Source: Candidatus Latescibacterota bacterium
GTDB taxonomy: Bacteria > Latescibacterota > UBA2968 > UBA8231
DNA: 64,000 nt
Reading direction: 5' to 3'
Assembly (NCBI GenBank): GCA_965203355.1
Contig: OZ241889.1
Location: 2,528,001-2,592,000, forward strand
Of the stretch, positions 274 to 58,685 are shown piece by piece. The number at the start of each line of letters is the position of its first letter. The first letter of the stretch is position 1. The notes beneath the pieces were generated by a model that saw nothing but the letters and a program-made list of their open reading frames with translations, ran no database searches and was not told the origin of the DNA. Position numbers and translations under genes: made by a program.

Positions 274-3161
274 AAGTACACGCCGCTGGCCACCGGACGC
301 CTCAAGTCGTCGTGGCCGTCCCAGTGCAGCCGATGGTAGCCAGCCGACTGCGGCCCTTCGGACAACACCGCCACCCGTTGGCCGCTCAGCGCGAACACTT
401 CCAGCCGCACCGGACCCGGCTCCAGCAGGAAATACGAAACAACGGTCTCGCTGTTGAACGGATTGGGCGCGTTTTGCCGCAGCTCGGTGCGGCTGGGCCG
501 GGCCACCCGTTTGCTATGAGCAAAAAAGTCGTCGAAGCCCGCGAACTTGGACGCTTGTCCCGTGGCCGTAAAGGTGAGCACCGTATCCAGCTCGGCGACC
601 GTGGCCGCAACAGTGTTGGTGCCCGGAGCGGGGCCGAGTCGCAGAAAGGTTCTGACGCGGCCACGGGCATCGGTGAGCACGTGGGTCGCCGACAGGGTCC
701 CGCCGCCGGCCGTGACAGCAAAGCGGACGACCGCCCCGGCGATGGGCTTGTCGTCTTCATCGAGTACGGAAACGACCAACGGCGCGGCCAGTTGCGCCCC
801 GGCCAGCCCGGCTTGCCCGTCGCCGGCTACCTTGGCCAGCCTATCGGGAAGTATCCCGCGCGCCGTAGCGGTAAAAGTAACCGTATCAACATCAGTCAGA
901 CTACGGGGAATCTGCCCGAGGGCCGTAGCAGTAAAAGTAACCGTATCAACATCAGCGACGGTGGCTACCACCGTGTTCGGCCCCAGATTGCGGCCCAGCG
1001 TCAGTATAGTTCTGGCGCGGCCATGGGCATCGGTGAAGGCGGTGGTATCCGAGAGGGTCCCGCCGCCGGCCGTAATAGCAAAGTGGACGACCGCCCCAGC
1101 GATGGGCTTGTCGTCTTCATCGAGTACGGAAACGACCAACGGCGCGGCCAGTTGCGCCCCGGCCAGCCCGGCTTGCCCGTCGCCGGCGACCTTGGCCAGC
1201 CTATCGGGAAGTGTCCCGAGTGCCGTAGCGGTAGCGGTAGCGGTAGCGGTAAAAGTAACCGTGTCAAGACCGGCGACCGTGGCCACCACCGTGTTCGGCC
1301 CCGGCGCCCGGCCCAGCGTCAGCGTACTGTAGGCGCGGCCATTCGATCCAGTGGAGTCGGTGGTATCCGAGAGGGTCCCGCCGCCGGCCGTGACAGCAAA
1401 GCGGACGACCGCCCCGACAAAGAGCTTGCCGTTTTGATCGGACACGGAAACGACAAACGGCTCAGACAACGTGGTGTCGGCTTGGCCTACTTGTCCATCG
1501 CCGGAGAATTTAGTCAAGGTATAGGGCACGGCCTGTTGGACGACGGGGGTTTGCACTGGCTCTCTGACGACGGGGGTTTGCACCGGCTCTCTGACGACGG
1601 GAGTTTGCACCGGCTCTCTGACGACAGGGGTTTGCACCGGCTCTCTGACGACAGGGGTTTGCACCGGCTCGTTGACGACGGGGGTTTGCACCGGCTCATT
1701 GACGACGGGGGCAGTATCCGCTTCGCGCGCCGTAGCGGTAAAAGTAACCGCATCAAGACCGGCGACCGTGGCCTCCACCGTGTTCGGCCCCGGAGTGCTG
1801 CCCAGCGTCAGCGTACTGCGGGCGCGACCATTCGATCCGGTGGAGGCGGTGGCATCCGAAAGCGTCCCACCGCCGGCCGTGACTGAAAAGCGGACGACCG
1901 CTCCGGCAAAGGGCGTGCCGTTTTGATCGGACGCGGAAACGACAAACGGCTCAGACAACGTAGTGCCGGTTTGGCCTACTTGTCCATCACCGGAGACTTT
2001 AGTCAAGGTAGAGACGACAGCAGGCTCCGCTTCAAGCACAAATTCTCTATGGGTTATATTCCCATCCTTATCAACGACCTTGATCTGCATCGCATGCTCG
2101 CTTGTATCGGAAAGACTTGCAGAAGACGAAGATGGAATAGTGCCGTCATACTCGAATTTAACAACGGCCTTTTTCTTTTTTTTGGCTTTCCATCCACGAC
2201 ATGCTACCAATTCATACGATCCAACGCTGATGTGCCCGGTCCGTGTTTTGCTTTGTAGCAACACCTGATGAAGCCCTTTCGAAGCACCGACTTCGAGTTC
2301 GATAGGGACACTCGCTGCTCCCGCCGGATAGGTCAGCGGCGAAGTGAATCTGATGGAAGGACTCTGCTTGCTCTGGCTAACTGAGCTACTGGATTTGAAG
2401 TAGGGATGCACAGCCAAGAGTCTAGCATGACAGGCGGCCAAAGTCACGCCGTTTGCGACAGTCCCCCAGTGAGTACGACCGTACGACATGATGTTGACCC
2501 TGTCGCTGAAGTCGTGCTTCAAACCAAAGGCATGTCCAAATTCATGGACTTGAGACGCCAAAGGTGTTTCTGTGGAATGTATCATCGCATATCCACCACT
2601 CTTCCCCCGGTGGAATCCCATCCCACCTATCCATTTGGATTCGGTCCACTCTTCTTTTTTTAGCGTTAAACGAAAGTCAACGCTGATAAAATAAATGTTC
2701 GCCTCGAGATCAAACGTCTGTCCAATTTCATCTCTCACTTTAGGAGCCCCATTTTCTCCGTAGTTACTTACTGCGTATTGCCCATCGACGCGATGTACCA
2801 GCGGTTCGCCCGATTCATCGGTTTCAAAGCTGAACGTTTTTTTACCGTAGCCATTTGCTTGCATCTGGGCAGCAAAAAAAGCCTGTATCTGCTTTATAGA
2901 GGCTTTCATGCTATTGACCGATGCTTGAATGAAAGGGCTGTTTTTAGGCACGAAGTAAATCATCCGCACCGTCCGCGGTTGGCCTGCTTGCAGGTCCGCT
3001 AGCCGCTTGGCCGCCGGCCGGGGATGATGCTCGGGCTCAAACGGCAGGCAAAAATGCACGCTGCCGGTAGGTTGAGAAGAAGCAGCATGGACGACCGATT
3101 GTGGCGAAAGAATAAGGACGATTAACGCAAAAAAGGTAGCATGACCAATGAGGGTTTTCAT
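216..3161 (-). CDS. secreted metzincin-type zinc metallopeptidase with four Big_1/invasin Ig-like domains, a Pro/Val-rich repeat linker and a C-terminal FlgD/T9SS-type sorting domain
   Basis: N-terminal signal peptide; HEFGHAFGLKH (HExxHxxGxxH) plus NIMSY Met-turn; four 'KVxGDGQxG...VVRFAVTAGGGTLS...GPNTVxATVA' domains; C-terminal QNAPNPFN...SGVYFYRL...TRKLVLLR; AGGAG SD upstream. Confidence 0.85.
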   Translation of the reverse strand: MKTLIGHATFFALIVLILSPQSVVHAASSQPTGSVHFCLPFEPEHHPRPAAKRLADLQAGQPRTVRMIYFVPKNSPFIQASVNSMKASIKQIQAFFAAQMQANGYGKKTFSFETDESGEPLVHRVDGQYAVSNYGENGAPKVRDEIGQTFDLEANIYFISVDFRLTLKKEEWTESKWIGGMGFHRGKSGGYAMIHSTETPLASQVHEFGHAFGLKHDFSDRVNIMSYGRTHWGTVANGVTLAACHARLLAVHPYFKSSSSVSQSKQSPSIRFTSPLTYPAGAASVPIELEVGASKGLHQVLLQSKTRTGHISVGSYELVACRGWKAKKKKKAVVKFEYDGTIPSSSSASLSDTSEHAMQIKVVDKDGNITHREFVLEAEPAVVSTLTKVSGDGQVGQTGTTLSEPFVVSASDQNGTPFAGAVVRFSVTAGGGTLSDATASTGSNGRARSTLTLGSTPGPNTVEATVAGLDAVTFTATAREADTAPVVNEPVQTPVVNEPVQTPVVREPVQTPVVREPVQTPVVREPVQTPVVREPVQTPVVQQAVPYTLTKFSGDGQVGQADTTLSEPFVVSVSDQNGKLFVGAVVRFAVTAGGGTLSDTTDSTGSNGRAYSTLTLGRAPGPNTVVATVAGLDTVTFTATATATATALGTLPDRLAKVAGDGQAGLAGAQLAAPLVVSVLDEDDKPIAGAVVHFAITAGGGTLSDTTAFTDAHGRARTILTLGRNLGPNTVVATVADVDTVTFTATALGQIPRSLTDVDTVTFTATARGILPDRLAKVAGDGQAGLAGAQLAAPLVVSVLDEDDKPIAGAVVRFAVTAGGGTLSATHVLTDARGRVRTFLRLGPAPGTNTVAATVAELDTVLTFTATGQASKFAGFDDFFAHSKRVARPSRTELRQNAPNPFNSETVVSYFLLEPGPVRLEVFALSGQRVAVLSEGPQSAGYHRLHWDGHDDLRRPVASGVYFYRLVTADDVFTRKLVLLR
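694..1212. repeat. near-identical internal duplication (about 160 bp, offset 360 bp) between Ig-like domains 3 and 4
   Basis: 694-852 matches 1054-1212 with few mismatches; Ig domains 1 and 2 (about 1735-2010 and 1245-1520) are likewise similar to each other. Confidence 0.85.
1539..1711. repeat. 27-bp coding tandem repeat, 6 full copies plus a partial copy (VV[N/R]EPVQTP)
   Basis: Unit GACGACGGGGGTTTGCACCGGCTCTCT repeated head-to-tail with no spacers. Confidence 0.95.
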
Positions 3162-3299
3162 GGGGGCACTCCTTTAGCTAGCTAATATCGCGCAAGGACG
3201 AGAAAGCGATTTATGCCCTTTAGGTTAATAATTTTTACAGAGCCTGCGCAAATACGCCAAGCTCGCGGGCGTCGTCGCAGAAAAGCACAAAGGGGTTGT

Positions 3300-3764
3300 T
3301 CAGGGAGGCGGCTCCCCGCGCGAAAATGCTCGGGCGATCTGGTCGCAGCGCTCGTTGTTTGGATCGCCGGCGTGGCCTTGGGTGTATTGCCACTGGATGG
3401 CGGGCGTATTGAGTTGGTCTAGGATGCGCCACAAATCTTGGTTGAGTACGGGCTTTTTGCTCGCTGTGCGCCAGCCCCGCCGCTTCCAGCCGTGAATCCA
3501 CTCGGTAATGCCCTTGCGCAGGTACTCGCTGTCCGTAACGAGCGTGATGGCAACGCCGGGTGGCGCGGCGCGCAGCCCTTCGATGGCCGCTTGTAACTCC
3601 ATGCGATTGTTGGTCGTCTCTGGCGCAAAACCACCCAACTCCACCACGCGGCCATCGCCGTAGAGCAGCCGAGCGGCCCATCCGCCTGGTCCCGGATTGA
3701 ACGAGCAGGCCCCGTCGGTGAAAATGGTCACGGTTTGCGCGGAATTGGCTGGCTGTTGTAGCAC
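3300..3764 (-). CDS. rnhA: ribonuclease HI
   Basis: [54 protein letters not shown] motifs. Confidence 0.95.
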
Positions 3765-3924
3765 TGGATTTGCCTTTATTTGAGGTGAGCCGCTAGTTTG
3801 CTAGCATAAAACATGGTGCGCGCGGCGGCAATTGAGGCGGGTAGGAGCAGGCCCATTTGTGCCGAAGGTGATTGCCCTTAGATTAGGGGCTTCCTTTATC
3901 CGAATCGCAAAGAGAAAATGCAAT

Positions 3925-5319
3925 ATGGCAGCGTATGATGTGGTAGTTATTGGCGGTGGCCCAGGCGGGTATTCGGCCGCCATTCGCGCCCGGCAGTTGG
4001 GGTTAAAAACCGCGCTGGTTGAGGACGCTGAGTTGGGCGGCACCTGTCTCAACTGGGGCTGCATTCCCACCAAGGCTCTGCTCAAGCAAGCCGAAGTGTA
4101 CCAGCTTTTCTTGCGCGCCGACGAATTCGGCTTGCGCGTTGACCAGCCGGCCGTGGATTGGGATGCCGTCATTGGCCGGAGCCGCCAAGTCGCCGCGCAG
4201 TTGTCCAAAGGCGTGGCTTATCTGATGCAGAAGAACCAAGTCGAAGTGTTCGCTGGCCGAGGCCGGTTGACGCCCAGCCGCCAAGTCGCGGTTGAGGATG
4301 CCGAGGGGGCGGTCGTGGCCGAGCTGGACGCCGCACACGTGGTGCTGGCTACTGGCGCGTGCCCCAAATCCATTCCGGGCGTGGAATTCGATGGCGAGCG
4401 GATCATCGCCAGCCGCGAAGCCATGGTCGTGGCCGAGCAGCCCGCTTCCCTCGCCATCATTGGGGCCGGGGCCATTGGCGTAGAGTTCGCCTATTTCTAT
4501 CGCGCCTTTGGCAGCAACGTGTTGCTTTTGGAAGCCCTGCCTCAGGTCTTGCCGCGCGAAGACGAGGAGATCGCCGCGGGGCTGGCCGAGTGCTTGACGC
4601 GGCAGGGGATCGAGGTGGTGACCGGAGCCAAGGTTGAGGAGGTCAAAAGACAAAAGCGCGGGGTTGCGTTGCGTTACCGGGTCGGCCAAGAGCAGCAGAC
4701 GCGGAGGGTGGAACGAGTCTTGGTTGCCACGGGCGTCGAGGGCCATATCGAGGGGCTGGGGCTGGCAGTGCTGGGCATCCGCACCCGCGACGGCGCGATT
4801 GTGGTTGATGAGCGGATGCAGACCAGTGCCCAGGGCATCTACGCGATTGGCGATGTGGCCGGTCCACCGCTCTTGGCGCACGCGGCCGCGCAGGAAGGGA
4901 TCGCCGCTGTCGAATTTATAGCGGGCCGGGACCGGCCCACCTTGGACCCGCGCCAAGTGCCCAACTGCATCTATTGCCAGCCGCAAGTGGCCAGCGTCGG
5001 CCTGAGCGAAAGCCAAGCGCGCGCCGCCGGATACGACGTCAAGGTCGGGCGCTTCCCGTTTGCAGCCAGTGGCAAGGCGCAAGCGGCCGGGGAGACCGAG
5101 GGCTTGGTCAAGTTGGTTTTTGACGCACGCTACGGCGAGTTGCTGGGCGGGGCCGTGTTGGGGGCCGAGGCCACGGAATTGATCGCCGAATTGACGCTGG
5201 CCCTCCGGCTCGAAGCCACCTATGAAGAGCTGTTGCTGACCGTGCACGCCCATCCAACGCTGTCCGAGGCCGTGATGGAAGCGGCCGGACAGGCTTTTGG
5301 CGAGGCGATCAACTGTTGA
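3925..5319 (+). CDS. lpdA: dihydrolipoyl dehydrogenase
   Basis: YDVVVIGGGPGGY, redox disulfide GGTCLNWGCIPTK, GAGAIGVEFA, C-terminal HPTLSE; start placed at ATG 3925. Confidence 0.95.
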   Translation: MAAYDVVVIGGGPGGYSAAIRARQLGLKTALVEDAELGGTCLNWGCIPTKALLKQAEVYQLFLRADEFGLRVDQPAVDWDAVIGRSRQVAAQLSKGVAYLMQKNQVEVFAGRGRLTPSRQVAVEDAEGAVVAELDAAHVVLATGACPKSIPGVEFDGERIIASREAMVVAEQPASLAIIGAGAIGVEFAYFYRAFGSNVLLLEALPQVLPREDEEIAAGLAECLTRQGIEVVTGAKVEEVKRQKRGVALRYRVGQEQQTRRVERVLVATGVEGHIEGLGLAVLGIRTRDGAIVVDERMQTSAQGIYAIGDVAGPPLLAHAAAQEGIAAVEFIAGRDRPTLDPRQVPNCIYCQPQVASVGLSESQARAAGYDVKVGRFPFAASGKAQAAGETEGLVKLVFDARYGELLGGAVLGAEATELIAELTLALRLEATYEELLLTVHAHPTLSEAVMEAAGQAFGEAINC

Positions 5320-39070: not shown

Positions 39071-40390
39071 ATGCGAAACAAGGAATTGAGCAAAGACATG
39101 CCAGTAGGAGTGGGATTGATTGGTTTGGGCACGGTCGGCAGCGGCGTGGTCGAGCTGTTGCAGAACGCGCCCGCGTCGTTGCGGCGGCGCAAGCACGTGG
39201 ATTTTGCATTGCGGAGCGCGGCGGTGCGCGACTTGGACAAGCCGCGCAGTCTCGCCATCGCACCGGAGCTGTTGACGGCAGACGCCGGCGCGGTCGTCGC
39301 CGACCCGCAGGTGCAACTGGTGGTGGAATTGACGGGTGCGCCCCCGGCTTTTGAGTGGGTGAGCGAGGCCCTGCGACAAGGCAAGGATGTGGTGACGGCC
39401 AACAAGGCCCTGCTTGCCGAGCGGGGTGAGGAGCTTTTTGAACTGGCACTGGCCAATGGAGCAGATTTGATGTTTGAAGCCAGCGTCGCGGCCGGCATCC
39501 CCATCATCCGCTCGTTGCGCAACGGCTTGGTCGCCAATCGGGTCGAGTCCCTGTACGGCATTCTCAACGGCACTACGAACTACATGCTCACGCGCATGAG
39601 TCGCGGCGCGGGCGACTACGCCGCCGTCCTCAAAGAAGCCCAAGCCCAAGGCTACGCCGAACCGGACCCCACTATGGACGTGAGCGGCATGGACGCCGCG
39701 CAGAAGTTGGCCATCCTCTGCCGCATTGCCTTCCACTGCACGGGCACGGGCCGCGACGTATTTTGCGAAGGCATCGAGCCGATCGAGAGCCGGGATATTG
39801 AATACGCCCGCGAGCTGGGGTATGCGATCAAGTTGCTGGCTATTGCCAAGCAACAGGACGGGCGCGTCGAGGCCCGGGTGCATCCGGCCATGGTGCCAAA
39901 AGACGCGCTATTGGCCAACATCCACGATGAGTTCAACGCCATTCAGGTGCAGGGGTCTGCGGTGGGGCCGCAAGTGTTTTCTGGCCGCGGTGCTGGGCGA
40001 CTGCCCACGGCCAGCGCTGTGGTGGCGGATATGGTCGAGCTGGTCGAGCGCAAGGCCGCCGGTGCGAGCACGTCCATTGGCGACATGGTTTTGGGCGAGG
40101 ACGCCGTCTCGGTTGTGCCCATTGAGAATGTGCCGATGCGCTACTTTATGCGCGTCTTAGTCCGCGACCAGCCCGGGGTGCTCGCTGGTATCTCGCGCAT
40201 TTTGGCCGAGGAGCGCATCAGCATTGCCTCGGTCATCCAAAAGGAGCGCGACTTTGAGGGCGGCTTTGTGCCGCTGGTCATCGTCACGCACGAGGCGCGC
40301 GAAGCCGCGATGCAGCGGGCGCAGCAGGCCGCGGCCACACTCGATGCGGTACAAGGGGCGGTCAAGCTCATCCGCATGGAGGATCTCTAA
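39071..40390 (+). CDS. hom: homoserine dehydrogenase with C-terminal ACT domain
   Basis: GLIGLGTVGSG, VVTANK, FEASVAAGIP, ILNGTTNY, GYAEPDP..DVSG.DAAQK, GAGRLPTASAV, DQPGVLA (ACT); start may be 39098. Confidence 0.95.
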   Translation: MRNKELSKDMPVGVGLIGLGTVGSGVVELLQNAPASLRRRKHVDFALRSAAVRDLDKPRSLAIAPELLTADAGAVVADPQVQLVVELTGAPPAFEWVSEALRQGKDVVTANKALLAERGEELFELALANGADLMFEASVAAGIPIIRSLRNGLVANRVESLYGILNGTTNYMLTRMSRGAGDYAAVLKEAQAQGYAEPDPTMDVSGMDAAQKLAILCRIAFHCTGTGRDVFCEGIEPIESRDIEYARELGYAIKLLAIAKQQDGRVEARVHPAMVPKDALLANIHDEFNAIQVQGSAVGPQVFSGRGAGRLPTASAVVADMVELVERKAAGASTSIGDMVLGEDAVSVVPIENVPMRYFMRVLVRDQPGVLAGISRILAEERISIASVIQKERDFEGGFVPLVIVTHEAREAAMQRAQQAAATLDAVQGAVKLIRMEDL

Positions 40391-40501
40391 CGTGCGCTAC
40401 GTGGTGTTGGTGCCCGACGGGGCGGCCGACTATCCGCTCGACGAACTGGACGGGCAGACGCCGTTGGAGGTGGCCGCTACGCCCTGCATGGATCGCTTGG
40501 C
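40380..40501 (+). repeat. left copy of a 122-bp direct repeat (hom stop plus 5' end of apgM) flanking the R-M cassette
   Basis: Identical to 42912-43033 except T40471 versus C43003. Confidence 0.97.
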
Positions 40502-40535
40502 CAGAGAGGAGAATCTTTATGTTGAAACAATCTGA
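40392..40535 (+). pseudogene. truncated duplicate of the apgM 5' end (47 codons)
   Basis: [41 protein letters not shown], then diverges and stops at 40535, overlapping the endonuclease start. Confidence 0.85.
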
Positions 40536-42911
40536 TGTGTTACACTCATGCTGTGATGGGGATAACTGGATTAGAGAAGCTCTGTGTAAAACGGAACCAT
40601 ATATATACGAAGAAGTAGAAAAGTCTTTGGCAACCAAACTATTAGATAAAATTTATCTTGATGCTGATGCTATCGAAAAACCCCTCCACCTAGCGGCAGC
40701 TTTTGACTTGCTAGTAGCAGCAGAGTACTACCGCACTGTCGCTTCTGAAGGATGGGGGCATTGCCTCGATAAAGGTTGTTCGCTTCTATTCTATCCGTAT
40801 GTCAATGCCTGTCCAAGATGTTTACTCCAAGGCCAATTTGTGTTTCACAAGGCCAATAAACCGAAGTCTGGTTCGATTGGTTTAGCAACCTCAAAACTTT
40901 TAGCTCTTTTTTTGCAAAAACTGCTTCATAAGAAGGGGTCTCCCATTGAGGTCGTGAAGGGAAATGAGCCAGTAGATTTGGTTTTTAGAGATAACTCATC
41001 GGGTTCCGAAGTGGTCTTCTTTGCAGAGATTAAAGCAGCACCTCTTTTCACGTTACCATTGGCTATTAAAGACCAGAGATCGGCTACAGCAGTGGAGCAT
41101 TCAATGGAAACTACTCAGCATGAGGAGATATATTGTACAGGACTTTACGATTCTGAAATAGGCATATATTTACCATACAAAAAGGATGAGGTTACTTGGG
41201 GCGGACAGATTTTCCCATTAGGAAAAAAGGTTGATCAAGAAGATGAGGCATGGGCATACAATGGATTAATTAATCTTTTAGACTCAGATCCTTCATTTAT
41301 AGAGGGTTATTTTGAATTCTGGAAAGAGGCATTTGAATGCTATGGTAGCCGCCTTAAGAAAAACCCATACTGGTTTACTAATGCCTGTGGAGGTCCTGAT
41401 CCAAGACCTATTACTTGGCCAAAAAGAAAAGGAACAGGTTATGAGACTATTTCTGACGGCAAAACAAGTGTGGGTATGGATAGGACAGATGATCTTAAAA
41501 AAGCTATCTATCAAGTATTGAAGATTGGGACTGCTGGTAAGCCCACGTGTACCTTTAAGTATAAAGTGGGCATTGTGACGAACATTCCCGCAGTTAGGCA
41601 TCATGGAGAGTACATAGAGCCAGTTAAAGATATAATTTGGGCAAGGGACGAATCAGCATCTGCTCAATACGTTGGTGATTTAGCTAAAGATAAAGGGCTG
41701 TTTAATCTCTTTGATGGTATAGTTTCTTTGACTGAGGTTTCAGCTCGTGATGAATGGATTAAGGCTACATTCACTTTTTGATATGAGGAGGTATATTGTG
41801 GTGGAAGTTTTTAATCATCAACCCCGTAAGGTTGGAATGGAAGTCCAACGTAGGATCAATGCACTAGGTATTGGGCAGAAAATGCAAGATTTGCCAGAGG
41901 AACTATGGCATAAAAGCTTCCGTTACTATGTCAAAGAAGATCCTAGTCGCAAAGGGGGACCAAATCTGAGAATGATAAGACTTGATCCAGACCAGCCTTC
42001 TCTAACAGTAACAGGTTATATTTTCAATAAGTTTGTTCATCCATATGAGGACCGATTTATTACGCCGAGAGAAGCTGCGAGATTACAAGGATTTCCTGAT
42101 GACCTAGAATTTAAAGGGGTGCTCACTAGTGTTCAGAGTCAAGTCGGTGATGCAGTCCCAATCGAACTCGGTAGATCCATCTTTGAGTCACTAATGATTC
42201 TTTTAAAGAAACATTGGCCGAAGAAGAAGATTTTCAAAACTCTTAGTTTGTTTAGTGGAGCAGGTGGATTAGATATAGCCTCAGAGAGAATAAAATTTAA
42301 AGATAATAGTCATTTTGAGCTAGTCGCTTGTATTGAAATTGAAGAGGATCGCTGCGATACACTAAAAGGATATTTTAAAGATAAAGTAAAAGTATTTAAC
42401 GTAGATATTTCAGAAGTAACTACTGACACTTTACTTAGCACATGCAAAGTGTCAAAAGATGACATTTGGGTAATTTATGGCGGTCCTCCTTGCCAGTCTT
42501 TTAGCCAAGCAGGAAAACAAAAAGGAACCGACGATTCAAGAGGAATATTGGTTTTTGAATTTATACGTTTTCTAAAGGAAATAAATCCTCCTTACTTTGT
42601 CATGGAAAATGTGGCAAATATAAATGGTATTGAGAAGGGGTTTTTACTTAAAAAAATAGTACAGAAAATGAACAAAATAGGTTATAATGTCGAGAGTGGT
42701 ATACTAAATTCCGTAGATTATGGTAACGCACAGAAGAGAAGGAGATTTATCTGTTTGGGTTCAAAAAAAGGATGGCCAATAGCTAAATTGCCTTTACCGA
42801 CGCACTGTGAACAGGAAAATTTGCTTGGGTTACCACTTTTCAAAACAGTAGGTGAAGCGTTAGAGGGATTACCTTCACCAGAGTGCGAGAAAATTGCCCT
42901 AGAAAATGGGA
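40502..42911 (+). mobile_element. horizontally acquired AT-rich restriction-modification cassette (no integrase or transposase) bounded by a long target duplication
   Basis: Abrupt drop in GC and changed codon usage between the two 122-bp repeats; contains only the R and M genes. Confidence 0.85.
40519..41781 (+). CDS. putative type II restriction endonuclease (PD-(D/E)xK, BssHII-like)
   Basis: PVDLVF...AEIKAAP catalytic pattern; GMDRTDDLKKAIYQVLK block that I recall from BssHII-family enzymes; adjacent to a C5-MTase; GAGGAG SD. Confidence 0.75.
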   Translation: MLKQSDVLHSCCDGDNWIREALCKTEPYIYEEVEKSLATKLLDKIYLDADAIEKPLHLAAAFDLLVAAEYYRTVASEGWGHCLDKGCSLLFYPYVNACPRCLLQGQFVFHKANKPKSGSIGLATSKLLALFLQKLLHKKGSPIEVVKGNEPVDLVFRDNSSGSEVVFFAEIKAAPLFTLPLAIKDQRSATAVEHSMETTQHEEIYCTGLYDSEIGIYLPYKKDEVTWGGQIFPLGKKVDQEDEAWAYNGLINLLDSDPSFIEGYFEFWKEAFECYGSRLKKNPYWFTNACGGPDPRPITWPKRKGTGYETISDGKTSVGMDRTDDLKKAIYQVLKIGTAGKPTCTFKYKVGIVTNIPAVRHHGEYIEPVKDIIWARDESASAQYVGDLAKDKGLFNLFDGIVSLTEVSARDEWIKATFTF

Positions 42912-42922
42912 AGGATCTCTAA
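41801..42922 (+). CDS. DNA cytosine-5 methyltransferase with circularly permuted motif order (M.BssHII-like)
   Basis: TRD, motif IX (TPREAARLQGFPD) and X (QVGDAVP) precede I (SLFSGAGG), IV (GGPPCQSFS), VI (ENV) and VIII (QKRRR); AGGAGGT SD before GTG 41798/41801. Confidence 0.92.
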   Translation: MEVFNHQPRKVGMEVQRRINALGIGQKMQDLPEELWHKSFRYYVKEDPSRKGGPNLRMIRLDPDQPSLTVTGYIFNKFVHPYEDRFITPREAARLQGFPDDLEFKGVLTSVQSQVGDAVPIELGRSIFESLMILLKKHWPKKKIFKTLSLFSGAGGLDIASERIKFKDNSHFELVACIEIEEDRCDTLKGYFKDKVKVFNVDISEVTTDTLLSTCKVSKDDIWVIYGGPPCQSFSQAGKQKGTDDSRGILVFEFIRFLKEINPPYFVMENVANINGIEKGFLLKKIVQKMNKIGYNVESGILNSVDYGNAQKRRRFICLGSKKGWPIAKLPLPTHCEQENLLGLPLFKTVGEALEGLPSPECEKIALENGKDL

Positions 42923-43033
42923 CGTGCGCTACGTGGTGTTGGTGCCCGACGGGGCGGCCGACTATCCGCTCGACGAACTGGACGGGCAGACGCCGTTGGA
43001 GGCGGCCGCTACGCCCTGCATGGATCGCTTGGC
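42912..43033 (+). repeat. right copy of the 122-bp direct repeat
   Basis: Matches 40380-40501; supplies the MTase stop codon and the intact apgM start. Confidence 0.97.
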
Positions 43034-44114
43034 GCGCGAAGGGGCCGGGGGCTTGGTACAGATGATCCCGGCCGAGCGGCACCCAGGCAGCGACATCGGC
43101 AACCTCGAAATTTTCGGCTACGACAGCCGCATGTACTACACGGGCCGGGCGCCGTTGGAAGCCGCGAGCATGGGGGTCGATTTGGGCGCCGACGGGGTGG
43201 CTTTCCGCCTGAACCTGATCTACGGAGAGGACGACGTGCTGGTCGATTACAGCGCCGGCCACATCGCCAGCCAAGAAGCGGCTGAGCTGGTGGGGGCCTT
43301 GGCGGCTGAGTTGGGCGGGCCGACTTTGCGCTTCTATCCCGGGGTCGGCTATCGCCACTTGTTGGTGTGGGATCGCGGCCCAGAAGCCGTGGAAACCTAT
43401 CCGCCGCACGACATCATGGGCGAGTCCATGGCCGCGCATGAGCCGACGGGCGTCGGGGCCGATAAAATCTGCGCTCTTATGGACGCGGCCGGTCCCATTC
43501 TCGCGGCCTCACCGGTCAATGCCGCCCGCACCGCCCGCGGCGAGCGGCCAGCCAACGCGATATGGCTCTGGGGGGCCGGGCGCGCCCTGCGGTTGGCTTC
43601 TCTGTCGGAGCGCTACGGCTTGCAGGGCGGCGTTATCTCGGCTGTTGACTTGGTGCGCGGGATCGGCAAAAGCGCGGGCTTAGAGGTCATTGAGGTGCCC
43701 GGTATTACCGGATACCTCGATACCAACTACGAAGGCAAGGCCGAATACGCGCTGGCCGCCTTGCAGCACGCTGATTTTGTCTATGTCCACGTCGAGGCTC
43801 CTGACGAAGCCGGGCACAACGGCGACTCACGGGCCAAGGTGCAGGCCATTGAGGATTTTGATGCCCGCGTCGTCGGCCCGATTTTGGCGGGACTAGCGTC
43901 GATGGGGCCGCATCGAGTGCTGCTGACTCCCGACCACCGCACGCCCATTGCGCGGCGCACCCACAGCCGCGAGCCCGTGCCCTTTGTGTTGTGGGGGACG
44001 GGTATTGAGGCCGACTCGATGCAAGCCTATGGGGAGCGGGCGGCCGAGTGGGGTAGTATGCAGGTGGAGCACGGACATGTATTGATGGATTATCTAACGG
44101 AGAAATGCAGGTGA
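42924..44114 (+). CDS. apgM: cofactor-independent phosphoglycerate mutase family protein (ApgM; also proposed as a homoserine kinase)
   Basis: VPDGAAD...TPLEAA.TP.MD, PGSDIGN, GRAPLEAASMG, YRHLL, HVEAPDEAGH, TPDHRTP; GTG start 1 nt after the TAA. Confidence 0.9.
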   Translation: MRYVVLVPDGAADYPLDELDGQTPLEAAATPCMDRLAREGAGGLVQMIPAERHPGSDIGNLEIFGYDSRMYYTGRAPLEAASMGVDLGADGVAFRLNLIYGEDDVLVDYSAGHIASQEAAELVGALAAELGGPTLRFYPGVGYRHLLVWDRGPEAVETYPPHDIMGESMAAHEPTGVGADKICALMDAAGPILAASPVNAARTARGERPANAIWLWGAGRALRLASLSERYGLQGGVISAVDLVRGIGKSAGLEVIEVPGITGYLDTNYEGKAEYALAALQHADFVYVHVEAPDEAGHNGDSRAKVQAIEDFDARVVGPILAGLASMGPHRVLLTPDHRTPIARRTHSREPVPFVLWGTGIEADSMQAYGERAAEWGSMQVEHGHVLMDYLTEKCR

Positions 44115-50503: not shown

Positions 50504-52939
50504 ATGATATTGAACAGAGGCTACAAAGTTGTGCTGGCGGTGTGCATTGTCGGTTGGGGCGGCGCCGAGCCGACGGCCGCTAGCTACATCCCTGACATGC
50601 CTTATTTTCACCAGCAGAGCAACCGCATTAACCCGGCCGGCTCCTGCCAGAACACCTGCATCGCTATCGTGCTCAAGTACTACGGAGCCGACGACATTAC
50701 GCCCGACCTGATCTCGGCCAAATGGGGCACGTACGTCGCTCAGACCACGGGTGGCCTCGAAAGGGTTTTTAACGAGGAAGCGGCGCGGCGCGGCCTGAGC
50801 GTCCGCGATCAAGCGACCGAAACCGGACTGCTGCGGGAATTGCACGCGCTGTTGGACGCTGGCCGGCCCGTCATCGTCCACGGCGGCTTTTCCGCTGTCG
50901 GGCACCTAATGGTGCTGGTCGGGTACGACGAGCGTTTTTACTACGCAATGGATCCGGCGGGCCAGTGGACCGAGCGGCTGAACCGGGGCTTTACCCATAC
51001 CAACGATCCGCACATAGGCCGCTACACGCGCTATGGCCGCGCCGCCGTAGAAAACGCCATCGTTTCTCGGGGCTTTATCCGCATGCACCAGATTTATTTT
51101 GCGCCGGGGGCCTTGGCCGCCGAGTGGGAGGGCCACTTTGCCGATTCGGTCGCAGTGGGTGCGGAGGTGGAGTTTGCCGGTGGCATCCGCGTCCGCGGTG
51201 GGTCTGCTGCTGGGGCGCGTCGGCGCGTGTCTGCGGATCTAAGTGCGTTGGGCGGTCCGCCGGACCAAGTGCTGGCCGAAGCCTCGCCGGGGTTTTACCC
51301 TTTGGCCGAGACCCTAGTGGCCGCTGGGCGTGCCGGGCGCAAGTCCGTCGTCTTCCGCGTCCGCCAAGGCGAAGCCTCCATTGAGGTCAAGCGGACGCTA
51401 GTACTGATGCCAGCCGAAAATCAAGTGGTCTTCGATGGCGGAATGGGGGCTGGTTGGCACGTAGGCTTTACCGCTGGTGCGGAGCTTGCGGTGTCAGCCG
51501 GGGGCCCGCTAACTGTGGCGGCGCGCAGCTTCACGGTGGAATGGCGACCTGCCGCGCCCGTAGAACCAGTCGGCTATCGCGCGCTGCGCTTTGCCTTTCA
51601 CCCCGGGGATGCAGTGGCCGGTGTGAACGGGGCGTTTTCCGTGCAACTCAACGAGGATCCGCGCAAGATCGAACCGCTAATCAATGGGTTTTTCCGCGGC
51701 ATTGACATGGCGCGGGCCGATTGGCAGACGGTGGAAGTGCCGCTGTGGGCTTTCGCGCCGCTGGAAGAACCGATTGAGTCCATTCGCTTCTTCGGCAATC
51801 TGCGCGGCGCGTTCTATCTCGACAGCATAGCACTAGTCAGCGCCTTGTTCCCGCGGCCGCGCCTGATGGCCGATTGGCAGAGCGCGTTGCTGGACTCGGC
51901 CATGGCTGGGGCCGAGTTGATCCTACACGAGCGTCTGCGCGTAACCAGCCCGGTGCCCGATGGTGCTGTGCCCGAAGTTTTAGCCGACCTCAGTGCGCTA
52001 GGGGGTGGCTCGGCGGTGGCGCTAGCGCGGATCGGCGCGGGCCGGTACCAACTAACGGGAACGCTTGCTGCCGATGTGCCTAACGGCCTGAAGTCCGTGC
52101 AAATTCACATCCGCCAGCAGACGCCAGACGGGCCGCTAGAGACGACCCTGATAAAGGAGTTGGTGCTGCTGCCGATGGCGGACCAAGTCATTTTTGCCGA
52201 CCAGTACGGTGAGAACTGGACCGAGGGATTTACCTCTAATGTCGAGGTACATGAGCAGGTCTTTGCCGACCTTGGGGCGCAGAGGCTGGCGGCCGAGGCG
52301 TTTACCCTCGAATACAAACCGCTGACTCCTGTGGCGCCGGTAGGGTACCGCGCCTTGCGACTGGCCTTCCATCCCGGCGATGCCAAAGGGGGGCCGCAGC
52401 CTACATTCAATGTGATGGTTAATAAGGATGCGCCGTCGCTGGTCGCGCTGTTTGAAGGGGCTGGCTTGGATTTGGCGCGGAAAGAATGGCAGGCGATAGA
52501 GATTCCGCTGGCGCGTTTCAATCGGCTCGACGGGCCGATTGAATCCATCCGCCTGTTCGGCAACTTGCGCGGCGCGTTCTACCTAGCCGATGTGCGCTTG
52601 GTCGCCGCTAAGACTTCCGCGCCCACGGCGGTGTCGCACCGGCAGCAAGCAATAGGGCCGGAGGCGTTCGCGCTGGCGCAGAACTACCCTAATCCATTTA
52701 ACAGTACCACGGCGATTGGTTTTGCCCTGCCGCAAGCCGGGGCGGTCCAGCTCGCAATTTTTAACGCACTCGGCCAGCGGGTCGCTGTCTTAGCCGAGGG
52801 AACCTATCCGGCCGGCTCCTACACGCTGCGCTGGGATGGAGTAAGAGACGGCGACCGCGCTTTGGCCGCGGGCTTGTATTTCTACCGATTGCAAACCCCT
52901 TGGGGAGGGCAAACGCGCAAACTGCTTTTGCTCAAGTAA
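50504..52939 (+). CDS. secreted C39-like cysteine peptidase with two repeated Ig/CBM-like modules and a FlgD/T9SS-type C-terminal domain
   Basis: Signal peptide; PYFHQ...[16 protein letters not shown]...DP (Q/C/H/D residues); duplicated ADLSALGG...[15 protein letters not shown]...[15 protein letters not shown]; QNYPNPFN...TRKLLLLK. Confidence 0.8.
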
Positions 52940-54797: not shown

Positions 54798-54839
54798 AGT
54801 AACACACCGGGCCACCATGGGTGTTTAAGTAGCACACCG
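54798..54839 (+). promoter_or_regulatory. candidate ECF-dependent (autoregulatory) promoter / direct repeat
   Basis: GTAAC (54799-54803), 17 nt, GTGTTT (54821-54826); AGTA(A/G)CACACCG repeated at 54798 and 54828. Confidence 0.3.
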
Positions 54840-54850
54840 CCAGGGGATAC

Positions 54851-55324
54851 ATGGACGTAGATACACTGTACCGTCGCTACGGACCGATGGTCATGCGTCG
54901 TTGTCGGCAGCTTCTGCGCGACGAAGACCAAGCACTCGACGCCACGCAAGATGTCTTTGTGCGGCTCTTGACGCGGCGCGACCGCCTGCAGGACGACGCG
55001 CCCTCTAGCCTGCTCTATCGCATGGCCACCAATCTCTGCCTCAATCGCATCCGCGATACCCGGCGGCGGAAGACCACGGCCGACTCGACGCTGTTGGAGC
55101 AGATAGCCTGCTGGCAGGACGCCGAGGGCCGGATAGATGCGCGTGCTGCGCTGGCCAAGCTCTTTGGCCAACAGCTCGAATCAACGCGCACGATGGCTGT
55201 CTTATACTACGTGGACGGCATGACCTTGGCCGAGGTAGCCCAGGAAGTGGGCATGTCCGTGTCTGGCGTACGCAAGCGGCTGCTCGGCCTGCGCGCATCG
55301 CTGCAAGAGATGGAGAAGCCATGA
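54851..55324 (+). CDS. ECF-type sigma-70 family RNA polymerase sigma factor
   Basis: Region 2 LYRRYGP.V...DATQDVF...LYRMATNLCLN; region 4 GMTLAEVA..VGMSVSGVRKRL; 157 aa. Confidence 0.93.
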   Translation: MDVDTLYRRYGPMVMRRCRQLLRDEDQALDATQDVFVRLLTRRDRLQDDAPSSLLYRMATNLCLNRIRDTRRRKTTADSTLLEQIACWQDAEGRIDARAALAKLFGQQLESTRTMAVLYYVDGMTLAEVAQEVGMSVSGVRKRLLGLRASLQEMEKP

Positions 55325-56082
55325 ACCAGCAAGACAAGCGCCCCATAAGCGACTACCAGCTAGAGCGCTATCTGCTGCGCGAGGGAACGGACGACGAGTT
55401 GGCGGATTTGGAACGCCGGTTGGCGGACGATCCAGCGCTCGCCCAGCGGCTAGCGGCCCTAGCGCACTCCAACGAGGAATTGCATCGGCGCTACCCACCC
55501 GAGTGGATGCGCGGCCAGATCGAGCTAAAACTCAAGCGGGCGCCGGGTCGGCCCGTCCAGCGAGCTTGGAGTGGGTATCGCCTTTGGGCCGTGCCAGCCG
55601 TGGCCCTGATCCTGGCGGTGGTGGCGGTGCCCACTCTCCTCGATCGAGAAGCCCCGGAAACCCCGGCGACGCGCAGCAAGGGCCGCGAACAGGAGCCGCG
55701 CTTGTTGGTTTTCCGCCAACGGGCCAGCGGGGTGGAACGCCTACAGGACGAAGCATTGGCCCACAGTGGGGACGTGGTACAGCTCGCCTACCGCTCGGGT
55801 GGCTTGCCGTACGGGGCGATCCTATCGGTCGATGGGCGCGGTACTGTAACTCAGCACCTGCCAGCGACTGGCGTGGTGGCCGTGCCGCTGGCGGCGCAAG
55901 ACACCCTCGATGTTGCCTACGAACTGGACGACGCGCCCCGGTGGGAGCGGTTTTATTTGCTGGCGGCGGATCGTCGATTTGGCCTAGCGGCGTTTAAGGC
56001 CAAACTCGCGGCTGGCGATGTGGCGTTGGCCGATGATGTCCGTCTGTTCCGATTTACCGTAAAAAAACCGAGTCAGCCTTAA
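55321..56082 (+). CDS. putative anti-sigma factor (single TM, extracytoplasmic DUF4384/'ActD-like' domain)
   Basis: ATGA overlap with the sigma gene; helical N-terminus (LERYLL.E), TM LWAVPAVALILAVVAV, TRSKG linker, GDVVQLAY...ILSVDGRG.VT.H.P...YELDDAP.WERF domain. Confidence 0.75.
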   Translation: MNQQDKRPISDYQLERYLLREGTDDELADLERRLADDPALAQRLAALAHSNEELHRRYPPEWMRGQIELKLKRAPGRPVQRAWSGYRLWAVPAVALILAVVAVPTLLDREAPETPATRSKGREQEPRLLVFRQRASGVERLQDEALAHSGDVVQLAYRSGGLPYGAILSVDGRGTVTQHLPATGVVAVPLAAQDTLDVAYELDDAPRWERFYLLAADRRFGLAAFKAKLAAGDVALADDVRLFRFTVKKPSQP

Positions 56083-56102
56083 CCCGGCGAGGAGTTGTGC
56101 CC

Positions 56103-58154
56103 ATGTCTTTGGTGCGGGTCCTGCTAGTCGTTATCGCGGCGGGTCTGTCCCAGCCGGTGGCGGCGGAAGTGCGGCGGTTGATCTTGGCGGCGGGCGCTAA
56201 CAACGGTGGGGTGGATCGCGAGTTGCTGCGCTACGCGGTGTCGGACGCGGAACAATTCGTCGAGGTGTTGCAGGAGATGGGGGGACTGGACCCCGCCGAT
56301 GTGTTGCTGTTGCGCGATCCCGACTTGGCGGCCTTTGAGCGCGGGCTGGCCGATCTGGGTCGGCGGGTACAGGCGGCCAGCCGACGGGGCGACCGCTTGG
56401 AGGTGCTGCTGTACTACTCGGGCCACGCCGACGAAGAGGGCCTGCTGTTGGCCGGCGATCACCTCGGGTATCAGCAATTACTCGACTCGCTGAAGACGGC
56501 CAACGCTGCGGTCCGCATCGCCGTCCTCGATGCCTGCAACTCTGGCAGCATAACCCGCATCAAGGGAGGCAAGCCCAAGCCGCCCTTTTTGGTTGATGAA
56601 TCCTTTGACATGCGGGGCTACGCCTTCCTCACGTCGAGTTCAGCCGACGAAGCAGCGCAAGAGTCGGACCTGATCGAAGCGTCCTTTTTTACGCACTATC
56701 TAATTTCCGGGCTGCGCGGCGCCGCCGACGTTACTGGCGATGGCCGGGTGACGCTACACGAGGCGTACCAGTTCGCATTCGACGAGACGCGGGCGCGGAC
56801 GCTTGGCACTGTGGGCGGGACTCAGCACCCAGCCTATGAGGGCCAGATGCGCGGCACGGGCGGCGTGGTGATGACCGAGGTGCGCCGCAACGCGGCCGGC
56901 CTGTTGCTAGACGAGGCACTCGCCGGTCGAGTGTCCATCCACAATGCCCAACAGCGCCTCGTCGCCGAACTAAACAAATCCCCTGGGCGCGCGGTCGAGT
57001 TGGGATTGGTGCCCGGGGCTTATACCCTGTTTTTGGAAACGTGGGACGAGGACTGGCGCTGGGCCGAATTGGTTTTGACCGAGGGCACTTTCGCCGAGGT
57101 GCGCACCAGTGATTTTCGCGCCTTGACCCCAGAGGAAACGAAGCTGCGCGGCGGTTCGGGGCGGCGCATTACCTTGGGACGCCAGATCGAGGTTGCCACC
57201 CACGAGGGATATACGCTGTCGCTGGGGCTGTTGACCAATACGCAGGACGAAGCGTTTCGCGGCATTCAGTTCGCTTGGCTGGTCAACCAAGCGCGCGAGC
57301 GGACCGGCCATCAGATTGGCGGGTTGGGCAACTTGGCACTCAAAGAGATCGATGGCTTGCAGGTATCCGTCGTCGGCGTCAACTGGGCGATGGGGCCATT
57401 GCAGGGCGGACAGGCGGGGCTGCTCAACATTGCTTCGCAAGTGCGCGGCTGGCAGGTGGCGCAAACGACCAACATCGTCGGCAAGATTCGCGGTTGGCAA
57501 CTCGCTGGAGTTACCAATTTTGTCGGCGAGGTCAAGGGCGGTCAGGTCGGATTATTAAACGTGGCGAGCAAGGTCAAGGGGTGGCAGATTGGCGTGGTCA
57601 ACCTTTCCGGCCACATCGAAGGCGGCCTGCCCATCGGATTGATCAACTACTCGCACAGCGGGCTTTTCAATCTCAGCACTTGGCGCGACGAAGTCGGCTT
57701 TACCCTATTCACCATTGCCTCGGGTAGCCGCTCGTTTTACACCGCTTTTACCATGGGCTTTACCGCCGAGGACGACCAGCGGCGCTGGGCGCTCGGCCTC
57801 GGCGGTGGGGTGCAGAAGCGTTGGCAGCGGTTTTTCCTCGGCCTTGATATGCACGCCTACCGGATCAGCCGCGCCCTCAACGACGATTACAGTGCGGGCA
57901 TTGGGTTTTGGCCGCCGGCCGTGAACTTTGACCTCGATCGCTTGGCTAAAGACAACTATCTGGCGCGGGTCAAACTTGAGACCGGGTGTTCTTTGCACGG
58001 CCATCTGGCGCTGTTTGGCGGCGTCTCCCTCAACCAATTGTGGACCGACGGTCACCTGCGGCTGATTGAGTCGAAAAGCCGCTACGAGCAGGAGTGGGAG
58101 GCCGGGCTTTTTGCGTGGCCGGGGTTTTTCTTTGGCCTGCGCTACGGGCGCTAG
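56103..58154 (+). CDS. exported caspase-family (C14) protease with GxQ beta-solenoid repeats and a beta-strand-rich, outer-membrane-like C-terminus
   Basis: Signal peptide (..PVAA); LRYAVSDA, YYSGHA (His 56424), LDACNSG (Cys 56535), AQESD...SFFTHYL..GLRGAAD; about 8 GxQ...N repeats (57255-57655); ends FFFGLRYGR. Confidence 0.88.
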   Translation: MSLVRVLLVVIAAGLSQPVAAEVRRLILAAGANNGGVDRELLRYAVSDAEQFVEVLQEMGGLDPADVLLLRDPDLAAFERGLADLGRRVQAASRRGDRLEVLLYYSGHADEEGLLLAGDHLGYQQLLDSLKTANAAVRIAVLDACNSGSITRIKGGKPKPPFLVDESFDMRGYAFLTSSSADEAAQESDLIEASFFTHYLISGLRGAADVTGDGRVTLHEAYQFAFDETRARTLGTVGGTQHPAYEGQMRGTGGVVMTEVRRNAAGLLLDEALAGRVSIHNAQQRLVAELNKSPGRAVELGLVPGAYTLFLETWDEDWRWAELVLTEGTFAEVRTSDFRALTPEETKLRGGSGRRITLGRQIEVATHEGYTLSLGLLTNTQDEAFRGIQFAWLVNQARERTGHQIGGLGNLALKEIDGLQVSVVGVNWAMGPLQGGQAGLLNIASQVRGWQVAQTTNIVGKIRGWQLAGVTNFVGEVKGGQVGLLNVASKVKGWQIGVVNLSGHIEGGLPIGLINYSHSGLFNLSTWRDEVGFTLFTIASGSRSFYTAFTMGFTAEDDQRRWALGLGGGVQKRWQRFFLGLDMHAYRISRALNDDYSAGIGFWPPAVNFDLDRLAKDNYLARVKLETGCSLHGHLALFGGVSLNQLWTDGHLRLIESKSRYEQEWEAGLFAWPGFFFGLRYGR

Positions 58155-58167
58155 ACGGAGCGGTAGG

Positions 58168-58392
58168 ATGGCGAGAAAGTGGATGCTCGGCATGGCGTTG
58201 ATCGGTTGCGGGATGAGCGATCCCTACGGGCCAGCCGACCTGCCCGAAGCCCCGTGGCAGCGCACCGAGGAGCAGCGGCTCGAAGCGATTGAGGAAAGTT
58301 GTCGTGGCCTGCCTTGGGAGCGCGGATGGCTCTGTCCGCACGGCGCGGCCGAGGCCGACACGACGAAAGCGCAAGGTGGAAAGGAGTTTTAG
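58168..58392 (+). CDS. small putative lipoprotein (74 aa)
   Basis: GGAG SD; MARKWMLGMALIGC lipobox-like signal; two further Cys; 13 nt after the caspase stop. Confidence 0.5.
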   Translation: MARKWMLGMALIGCGMSDPYGPADLPEAPWQRTEEQRLEAIEESCRGLPWERGWLCPHGAAEADTTKAQGGKEF

Positions 58393-58393
58393 G

Positions 58394-58685
58394 ATGGAAA
58401 ACCCCATATTACAGGCCGTCGATGCGCAACGCCTACTTGATACGACCAAGAAGCTGATTGCGGTGCCAGTGTCGGGTTGAAGGGACGCGTCGCTGGGTAG
58501 CGGCTGGATCAGAGCCGGACGCACGCCGAGAAATAGAAGACCGGCTCGCCGACTGGAACATGCCCGGCGCCGCCTTTGCGATAGAGCACAACAGCCCGCT
58601 AGTGAGCGCGTTCCAGTCGGCGCACGAGCAGGTGACGGGGGCCGCGCTGCCCATGTCTTTATGGCTGCCGGGATTGAGGCCCTAA
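58394..58685 (+). pseudogene. internally deleted remnant of an M20/ArgE-like peptidase
   Basis: AAGGAG SD plus MENPILQAVDAQRLLDTTKKLIAVP (M20-like N-terminal helix), joined out of frame near 58468 to CRVEGTRRW...SPLVSAFQSAHEQVTG (late M20-like segments). Confidence 0.55.

Follow-up and report, generated by a model that had tools for sequence, protein, structure and literature searches.

A conserved triad of sigma factor, predicted anti-sigma factor and barrel-anchored caspase as a candidate trans-envelope signalling module

What does a caspase-family protease do beside a sigma factor and its likely membrane-bound regulator? Natural substrates are known for few bacterial caspase-family proteases, and, of those characterised, the sigma-linked ones compared here are tied to phage defence. 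The question is raised by three genes within a 64,000-nucleotide (nt) stretch of a Candidatus Latescibacterota genome (contig OZ241889.1; the whole stretch is referred to as the window), which encode a sigma factor of the extracytoplasmic function (ECF) class, a single-pass membrane protein (the middle protein) and an exported caspase. An earlier note on this DNA had suggested that a sensing event at the cell surface activates the caspase, which cuts the middle protein and thereby frees the sigma factor. Our analysis indicates that the triad is a real, undescribed module related to known signalling by anti-sigma proteolysis. Comparison of the encoded sequences further suggests that the tethered caspase probably acts as the dedicated site-1 protease of the co-encoded predicted anti-sigma. 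No paper on the triad was found in the literature as judged from titles and the starts of abstracts, a scope within which a mention in an ECF supplement cannot be excluded; the available parts of the ECF classification text PMC7826278 and its supplement do not contain the word caspase and name DUF4384 once, for ECF25.

Do the three genes belong together? In the window the sigma gene (54851-55324) and the middle gene (55321-56082) share an ATGA overlap, and a gap of 14 nt (GTG start at 56097) or 20 nt (ATG start at 56103) leads to the caspase gene, which ends at 58154; these coordinates confirm the tight coupling described in the earlier note. A scan with a caspase alignment confirmed 565 stretches, the best 78 of which are the loci (numbered L) used for the caspase-selected counts. 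About 23 of these 78 are close relatives, and a 75% identity filter left 36 loci plus the window (37 non-redundant loci). The middle gene lies directly upstream of the caspase in 76 of the 78 loci (the exceptions being L046 and L053) and the sigma gene is upstream in 73, three further gaps being contig ends. Among the loci listed, the closest genomes (78-92% caspase identity) are metagenome-assembled genomes of Candidatus Latescibacterota or Gemmatimonadetes, and the non-redundant triads span Latescibacterota, Acidobacteriota, Fibrobacterota, Myxococcota, spirochaetes and others. A reverse check starting from the middle gene gave the same picture. The middle-protein profile matches 97 of 251 sampled Myxococcota genomes, and in 90 of the 181 matches (30 best and 60 from weak rows) a caspase follows directly in 88 and a sigma gene precedes in 88. 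The middle family as a whole comprises 4,174 clusters at 50% identity (E<=0.001), or 1,309 at 1e-30. Because the arrangement is repeated in most loci examined, it is not due to chance. No flanking family occurs in more than 4 of the 37 non-redundant loci, and no neighbour is conserved across phyla, so the triad appears to be a self-contained unit.

Analysis of the first two products supports a pairing of sigma factor and anti-sigma. The sigma factor exceeds the cut-off of Pfam Sigma70_r2 (55.6 bits), Sigma70_r4_2 (27.8 bits) and TIGR02937 (80.3 bits) and has the make-up of the ECF group (group 4), a short protein with sigma2 and sigma4 domains only, in agreement with its first assignment. The middle protein has one hydrophobic segment at residues ~88-107, and its structure model begins with four helices, followed by a membrane helix (92-107), a linker of low confidence (108-118) and, from residue 127, an immunoglobulin (Ig)-like sandwich. 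Residues 7-70 align with the anti-sigma RslA (3hug_B; Z 6.2, root-mean-square deviation (rmsd) 3.5, 62 of 62 residues), which is a middling score, and NF052375 is matched weakly. The zinc site HxxxCxxC (ZAS subtype, a class of zinc-binding anti-sigma) occurs in 36 of 124 relatives; the window protein has no such ligands. With its helical N-terminus, single transmembrane helix and periplasmic domain, the middle protein is likely to be an anti-sigma, as proposed in the earlier note. The same note had called the periplasmic domain DUF4384-like. The single transmembrane segment and helical N-terminus stand, and the DUF4384 label is fair but weak: Pfam finds no PF14326 match in the window protein, the aligned relatives match in 27 of 150 cases at E<=0.01 (best 8.3e-6), and near clusters in an Atlas search carry DUF4384 at 33% and 12%. 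A sequence search of solved structures with the middle protein returned nothing, and a fold search with the periplasmic domain returned matches to Ig-like folds of a generic kind (the MG domain of alpha2-macroglobulin, Z 8.6, rmsd 2.3, 87 residues aligned; PEBP) from which no function is drawn; no Csx30 chain is listed among them. Elsewhere, a single contig (G286:C24, loci L190-L191) holds eight DUF4384 matches amid about nine weak caspase-like open reading frames.

The build of the third product bears on where, and after which residues, it could cut. The window protein matches Peptidase_C14 at 31.9 bits (cut-off 21.4), carries an intact dyad (S106-G-H108 and D143-A-C145) and has a hydrophobic N-terminus, as do 122 of its 124 relatives, which upholds its description as an exported caspase. 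All 124 caspases have the His motif, and 117 of them also have the motif of the first S1 Asp. D48 aligns with the ND Asp of metacaspases and D143 is invariant; we take these two residues, by analogy with metacaspases, to be the S1 acids. Because of the alignment of D48, cutting after Arg or Lys is predicted. A sequence search of solved structures with the caspase returned metacaspases only. In the structure model (mean predicted local distance difference test score (pLDDT) 80.7), a caspase domain is followed by a seven-strand beta-domain, a GxQ solenoid and eight C-terminal strands (residues 521-682). A Foldseek search with this model recovered metacaspases and caspases, and the eight strands matched NspA and the OprF barrel. 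The window protein holds 10 GxQ motifs, with an LA_2272-repeat match below cut-off, so both the repeats and the outer-membrane-like C-terminus anticipated from the sequence are recovered, the latter in the model. A predicted signal peptide, eight antiparallel strands and alternating short and long loops together point to an 8-strand outer-membrane barrel. In such barrels the long loops point outward and the barrel N-terminus lies in the periplasm. In the model, strands 5-6 and 7-8 are connected by the long loops and only short turns link 2-3, 4-5 and 6-7; the protease and the GxQ repeats should therefore be located in the periplasm, hung inward from the outer membrane, with the barrel loops alone facing out. 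Surface exposure of the repeats, as the earlier note had it, was rejected on this topology. For comparison, the orthocaspase MaOC1 is reported to prefer basic residues and to process itself (PMC8283722).

The C-terminal modules also vary among homologues. GxQ repeats plus barrel are found in 17 and a barrel alone in 16 of the 35 non-redundant caspases scored (2 are singletons; 2 of the 37 were unparsed), a swapping of modules that had been anticipated, and OMP_b-brl is matched by 11 of 14 barrel-only C-termini compared with 0 of 9 GxQ-type C-termini scanned. Since about half of the homologues lack the repeats, these cannot be a universal sensor. The most variable part of the caspase among 23 close sequences is loop 590-617 (identity 0.75, compared with 0.96 for the protease domain). 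The protein does not resemble a TonB-dependent transducer, as its barrel has eight strands and neither a plug nor a TonB-receptor family match was found.

Where would a protease of this specificity cut? A basic residue followed by Gly is conserved in both the middle protein and the caspase. Full-length middle-protein representatives (141, taken from 151 retrieved) hold K120 in 141 of 141, G121 in 140 and R118 in 128, with the ten columns before the motif averaging 13% conservation and flanking columns 11-31%. The pattern R-x-[KR]-G falls no more than 70 residues past the membrane helix in 126 of the 141, compared with 12.9 in shuffles, at a median distance of 17 residues. These 141 proteins were found with a profile that includes the motif; in the 69 intact middle genes selected only via the caspase, K-G stands at the motif position in all 69 (63 by pattern, 6 by eye). 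As a control, unrelated single-pass membrane anti-sigmas of the zf-HC2 type were inspected (60 loci fetched, 54 parsed, 23 qualifying), and none of the 23 has the motif. The two partners were then compared in 124 middle/caspase pairs, made up of 87 from Myxococcota (L145, L146 and L149 dropped) and the 37 non-redundant ones. The caspase loop past the catalytic Cys has K in 124, G in 122 and a P3 Arg in 115, and the middle-protein site has K in 120 and R in 4 at P1, G in 113 at P1' and a P3 Arg in 99. A third site, [KR]G about 200 residues past the Cys and just before the anchor, is present in 121 of the 121 caspases with enough sequence; seven control windows hold [KR]G in 3-43 of 119-124. Both caspase sites lie in segments with pLDDT<50, and the middle-protein site ends a low-confidence segment. 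By eye, the third site is missing from two related caspase-less genes that encode a beta-domain and barrel with a signal peptide (L056, L063). The shared motif, which the earlier note does not mention, is the chief evidence for cleavage and lends the site-1-protease idea specific support at the level of sequence; the predicted release site at R349|G350 would account for an outer-membrane enzyme being able to act near the inner membrane. A complex prediction for caspase residues 22-350 with the periplasmic part of the middle protein scored 0.00, gives no verdict and is used neither way.

The same motifs might be read by some other basic-specific protease, foreign or chromosomal, or might be structural, in which case the triad would amount to a tripwire for proteases or to an ordinary stress operon carrying a caspase downstream. 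Activation of a caspase by another protease has precedent, as the Haliangium PCaspase is reported to be activated by SAVED-CHAT (10.1101/2023.06.23.546230), and a basic-Gly pair stands shortly before the canonical DUF4384 domain in about 5 of 16 other proteins inspected by eye. We nevertheless rate this explanation as very unlikely, for the S1 acids of the caspase predict this very specificity, no second protease gene is found among the conserved neighbours and the two caspase-less barrel copies lack the third site.

With the caspase as site-1 protease, signalling would most likely proceed as follows. The anti-sigma would hold the sigma factor at the inner membrane. A change at the outer membrane, possibly a ligand or contact at the barrel loops, barrel clustering or barrel mis-assembly, would let the zymogen, specific for Arg/Lys, cleave itself in the loop at K154|G155. 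By cleaving itself again at R349|G350, the protease would come free of its anchor and could reach the inner membrane, where it would cut the anti-sigma at K120|G121 and remove the Ig-like cap. RseP and cytoplasmic proteases would then finish the breakdown of the anti-sigma, and the sigma factor would transcribe from GTRACA-N16-GTGTY promoters, switching on its own operon together with a few genes for outer-membrane proteins. Each of five close-relative genomes (5/5) has RseP above cut-off and a single caspase of this family. A bolder version, which we put forward tentatively and hold to be somewhat less than an even prospect, is that of a widespread, undescribed trans-envelope signalling route whose outer-membrane receptor is itself the caspase zymogen. 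Activated and released by its own cuts at basic|Gly sites, it would travel through the periplasm as a catalytic messenger and cut the anti-sigma at the same motif, with swappable barrels and caspase-less copies under the same promoter setting or damping the input.

A different order of events would have the caspase pre-cut the anti-sigma constitutively, with the bound pieces or a caspase fragment shielding it until a signal breaks the complex. The -4 overlap of sigma and middle genes in 63 of 73 loci fits this arrangement, as translational coupling suggests near-equal protein amounts. Related behaviour is reported from other systems, in which anti-sigmas cleave themselves and the products stay stably bound (PMC11506125), or in which the signalling domain of FoxA is cut off and protects FoxR in the absence of signal (PMC11637429). 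Constitutive priming nonetheless seems improbable to us: the loop site is like that of a zymogen and the release site is separate, which suggests regulated steps, and in the systems just cited priming does not involve a separate protease.

What would the freed sigma factor transcribe? The bipartite motif GTRACA-N16-GTGTY precedes the sigma gene in 64 of 71 loci, compared with 28 of 10,422 control windows; the spacer is 16 in 63 loci, and among non-redundant loci the motif is present in 31 of 36. It also occurs in 23 of 28 near Myxococcota loci, and the copy upstream of the sigma gene is the only one in the window. From its conservation and position we predict this motif to be an autoregulatory ECF promoter. 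Further copies precede two solo caspases (L053, L046), caspase-less barrel modules (L056, L063, L070), TonB-dependent receptors (L053, L064, L068, L198) and genes for a DUF3450 protein, an LptE-like protein, an FG-GAP protein and an OMP-like protein; copies in L006, L034 and L067 have no clear gene behind them. The envelope bias of these genes is suggestive only. Phage sensing, one of the triggers considered in the earlier note, finds no support, as no neighbour is conserved across phyla and the genes behind the motif encode envelope proteins. A genome-wide search of five close relatives returned 5 sigma promoters and 4 other matches, and a second set of five genomes matched at the sigma gene alone, in 4 of 5. 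With so few matches beyond the sigma gene, the regulon appears to be small, and the idea of a large regulon was set aside.

Several smaller observations concern the same motif. The caspase-less C-terminal modules lie right after the triad (L056:7775-8857, L063:7717-8685, L070:8443-9540) and may be decoys or effectors. From position 1501 on, L083, L196 and L198 share a homologous promoter cassette that, in three close-relative genomes, stands before a different gene for an exported protein each time (FG-GAP, OMP-like and TonB-dependent receptor). A small peptide of 45-49 residues, rich in Gly, Lys and Arg and with RGG/KGG repeats, is encoded after the caspase in L019 (8237-8474), L025 (8229-8464) and L021; in L019 and L025 it has its own copy of the promoter motif, and a signal peptide is not evident.

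The solo caspases behind promoter copies also fit another role, that of an output. The middle protein might chiefly be a bait-type caspase inhibitor whose R-x-K-G mimics the enzyme loop and holds the enzyme in check, with the caspase as the effector of the sigma factor on other periplasmic targets. The middle-protein motif does copy the caspase loop, and the Haliangium PCi is reported both to be cut by and to inhibit PCaspase at a locus with a sigma factor (10.1101/2023.06.23.546230). We judge a chiefly inhibitory role unlikely. Cleavage at a site this close to the membrane helix (median 17 residues), immediately ahead of the cap, would leave RseP with an exposed substrate, and the N-terminus of the middle protein is anti-sigma-like; moreover, inhibition and signalling by cleavage can coexist.

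Some results count against the caspase as dedicated site-1 protease. The middle genes of L145 and L146 have no adjacent caspase and keep the motif, both genomes holding other triads. Conservation of the basic residue in the loop past the catalytic Cys could have a structural reason, and K120 could dock on invariant acids within the Ig domain of the same protein. Co-variation at P2 was seen by permutation (30 identical of 124, compared with 16.9 expected), and P2/P3 co-variation between the motifs was dropped as evidence because it disappeared with phylogenetically independent pairs (FastTree tree, median p 1). The promoter motif is found in 0 of 58 loci of the distant Myxococcota subfamily, and the 4 extra genome-wide matches do not exceed the 6 of a reversed control pattern.

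How does the triad compare with known systems? Regulated intramembrane proteolysis of ECF anti-sigmas is well established for DegS/RseA/RseP/sigmaE and PrsW/RsiW. It is also described in PMC10028731. The triad shares with it an ECF sigma factor, a single-pass anti-sigma, a predicted periplasmic first cut followed by RseP, autoregulation and an envelope-protein output; it differs in that the candidate site-1 protease is a C14 cysteine protease from the same operon, is fused to an outer-membrane barrel and has the substrate's motif in its own linkers. In Myxococcus xanthus, the periplasmic CHAT domain of DdvA is proposed to cut the linker of DdvA itself before RseP acts (PMC11506125). The DdvS/DdvA pair, as reported there, resembles the triad in its ECF sigma factor, its transmembrane anti-sigma with a helical (zinc) N-terminal domain and its periplasmic caspase-fold protease. 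The TPR-CHAT part is, however, fused within DdvA, which controls a CBASS-CRISPR island (CBASS being a cyclic-oligonucleotide-based antiphage signalling system), whereas in the triad the protease is a C14 protein in its own right, attached to a predicted outer-membrane barrel, and the 253-residue middle protein is Ig-like with no TPR-CHAT. Csx29 is reported to cut Csx30 and so free CASP-sigma (PMC10028731), and some Csx30 proteins carry DUF4384 (10.1101/2022.08.17.504292). Craspase thus provides a further case of an anti-sigma cut by a caspase-fold protease, in the linker that precedes a C-terminal domain which can be DUF4384; unlike the triad, it is described as cytoplasmic, RNA-triggered, of the CHAT family and CRISPR-linked, with cutting at M427|K428.

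The Haliangium type III-B PCaspase/PCi/PCc-sigma system resembles the triad in having a cleavage-activated C14 caspase with a sigma factor and a small partner that it cuts (10.1101/2023.06.23.546230). It differs in its SAVED-CHAT activation, broad specificity and abortive infection, and the available part of the report describes no export signal, barrel or membrane anti-sigma. A PADLOC run on 6 window proteins gave one weak caspase match, and within that scope no linked defence genes were found; no neighbour family exceeds 4 of 37 loci. FoxA/FoxR/FoxI offers a parallel of another kind, in that an outer-membrane barrel with a cleavable periplasmic N-terminal extension is reported to control an inner-membrane anti-sigma (PMC11637429). 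TonB-dependent receptors, familiar from such cell-surface signalling, are among the predicted targets of the triad, but the triad barrel is 8-stranded and plugless and its extension is itself a protease. ActD of the M. xanthus act operon enters the comparison through a label: ActD-like is the database name of three listed close relatives of the middle protein.

The analysis names an enzyme, a substrate, three residue-level predicted cut sites and a reporter promoter. If the caspase does cut the anti-sigma, it would represent a new class of site-1 protease and would give bacterial caspases a signalling role apart from cell death. It would also show how an outer-membrane protein can signal without TonB. 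The features are collected in Table 1.

Table 1 Positions of the triad and its predicted elements in the window
Feature	Positions	Strand	Basis or remark
Predicted autoregulatory ECF promoter, GTAACA-N16-GTGTT	54799..54825	+	Starts 52 nt before sigma ATG
ECF sigma factor, 157 residues, sigma2 and sigma4, without extension	54851..55324	+	Family matches
Predicted single-pass anti-sigma, 253 residues, ActD-like in database names	55321..56082	+	
Cytoplasmic helical domain, residues 1-73, anti-sigma-domain-like	55321..55539	+	Four helices, pLDDT 86-98
Transmembrane helix, residues ~88-107	55582..55641	+	Hydrophobicity and structure model
R118-S-K120|G121, predicted site-1 cleavage site at end of variable low-confidence linker	55672..55683	+	Conservation
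Periplasmic Ig-like beta-sandwich, DUF4384-like, invariant acids D171, D203, E209	55699..56064	+	Model and alignment
Exported C14 caspase-family protease, 683 residues, with beta-domain, GxQ solenoid and outer-membrane barrel	56103..58154	+	Alternative GTG start 56097
Predicted Sec signal peptide, residues 1-21	56103..56165	+	Hydrophobicity alone
D48, aligned with Asp of metacaspase LRGCxND segment	56244..56246	+	Alignment
Catalytic His108 (SGH)	56424..56426	+	Invariant in alignment
D143-A-C145, presumed second S1 acid and catalytic Cys	56529..56537	+	Invariant in alignment
R152-I-K154|G155, predicted self-activation site in disordered loop past catalytic Cys	56556..56567	+	Conservation, pLDDT<50 over 147-184
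Seven-strand beta-domain, residues 265-340	56895..57122	+	Structure model
T346-K-L-R349|G350, predicted release site at protease/anchor border	57138..57152	+	Conservation, pLDDT<50 over 346-358
GxQ (LA_2272/VC2662-like) beta-solenoid, predicted periplasmic	57213..57653	+	Repeat count, sub-cut-off match, model
Predicted 8-strand outer-membrane beta-barrel	57663..58148	+	Structure model, fold search

The surroundings of the operon yielded further observations. A predicted lipoprotein of 74 residues (58168-58392, + strand) abuts the operon in the window and has counterparts of 68-80% identity in 17 close-relative loci, plus one of 43% in a further locus. It was rejected as a fourth operon gene because it lies 1.6-4 kb further downstream of the caspase in most relatives; its position in the window, followed by a 28-codon stump (58394-58480), suggests a local deletion. 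Four loci (L019, L020, L022, L025) carry an extra open reading frame or remnant of up to ~190 residues, presumably Uma2-like, between the middle gene and the caspase, and L021 has a similar gap. In six others (L031, L032, L036, L040, L041, L044) the triad is followed by a gene for a DUF4252 plus Omp85-like protein of 556-559 residues and by a second caspase-barrel gene. Two genes upstream of the triad in the window, an 811-residue exported protein (50504-52939, + strand) combines a Peptidase_C39-like domain with a C-terminal FlgD-Ig domain and is not a conserved neighbour. The GC content of the window falls to 0.47-0.53 at about 2001-4000 and 40001-44000, compared with ~0.62 elsewhere, and that of the triad is average.

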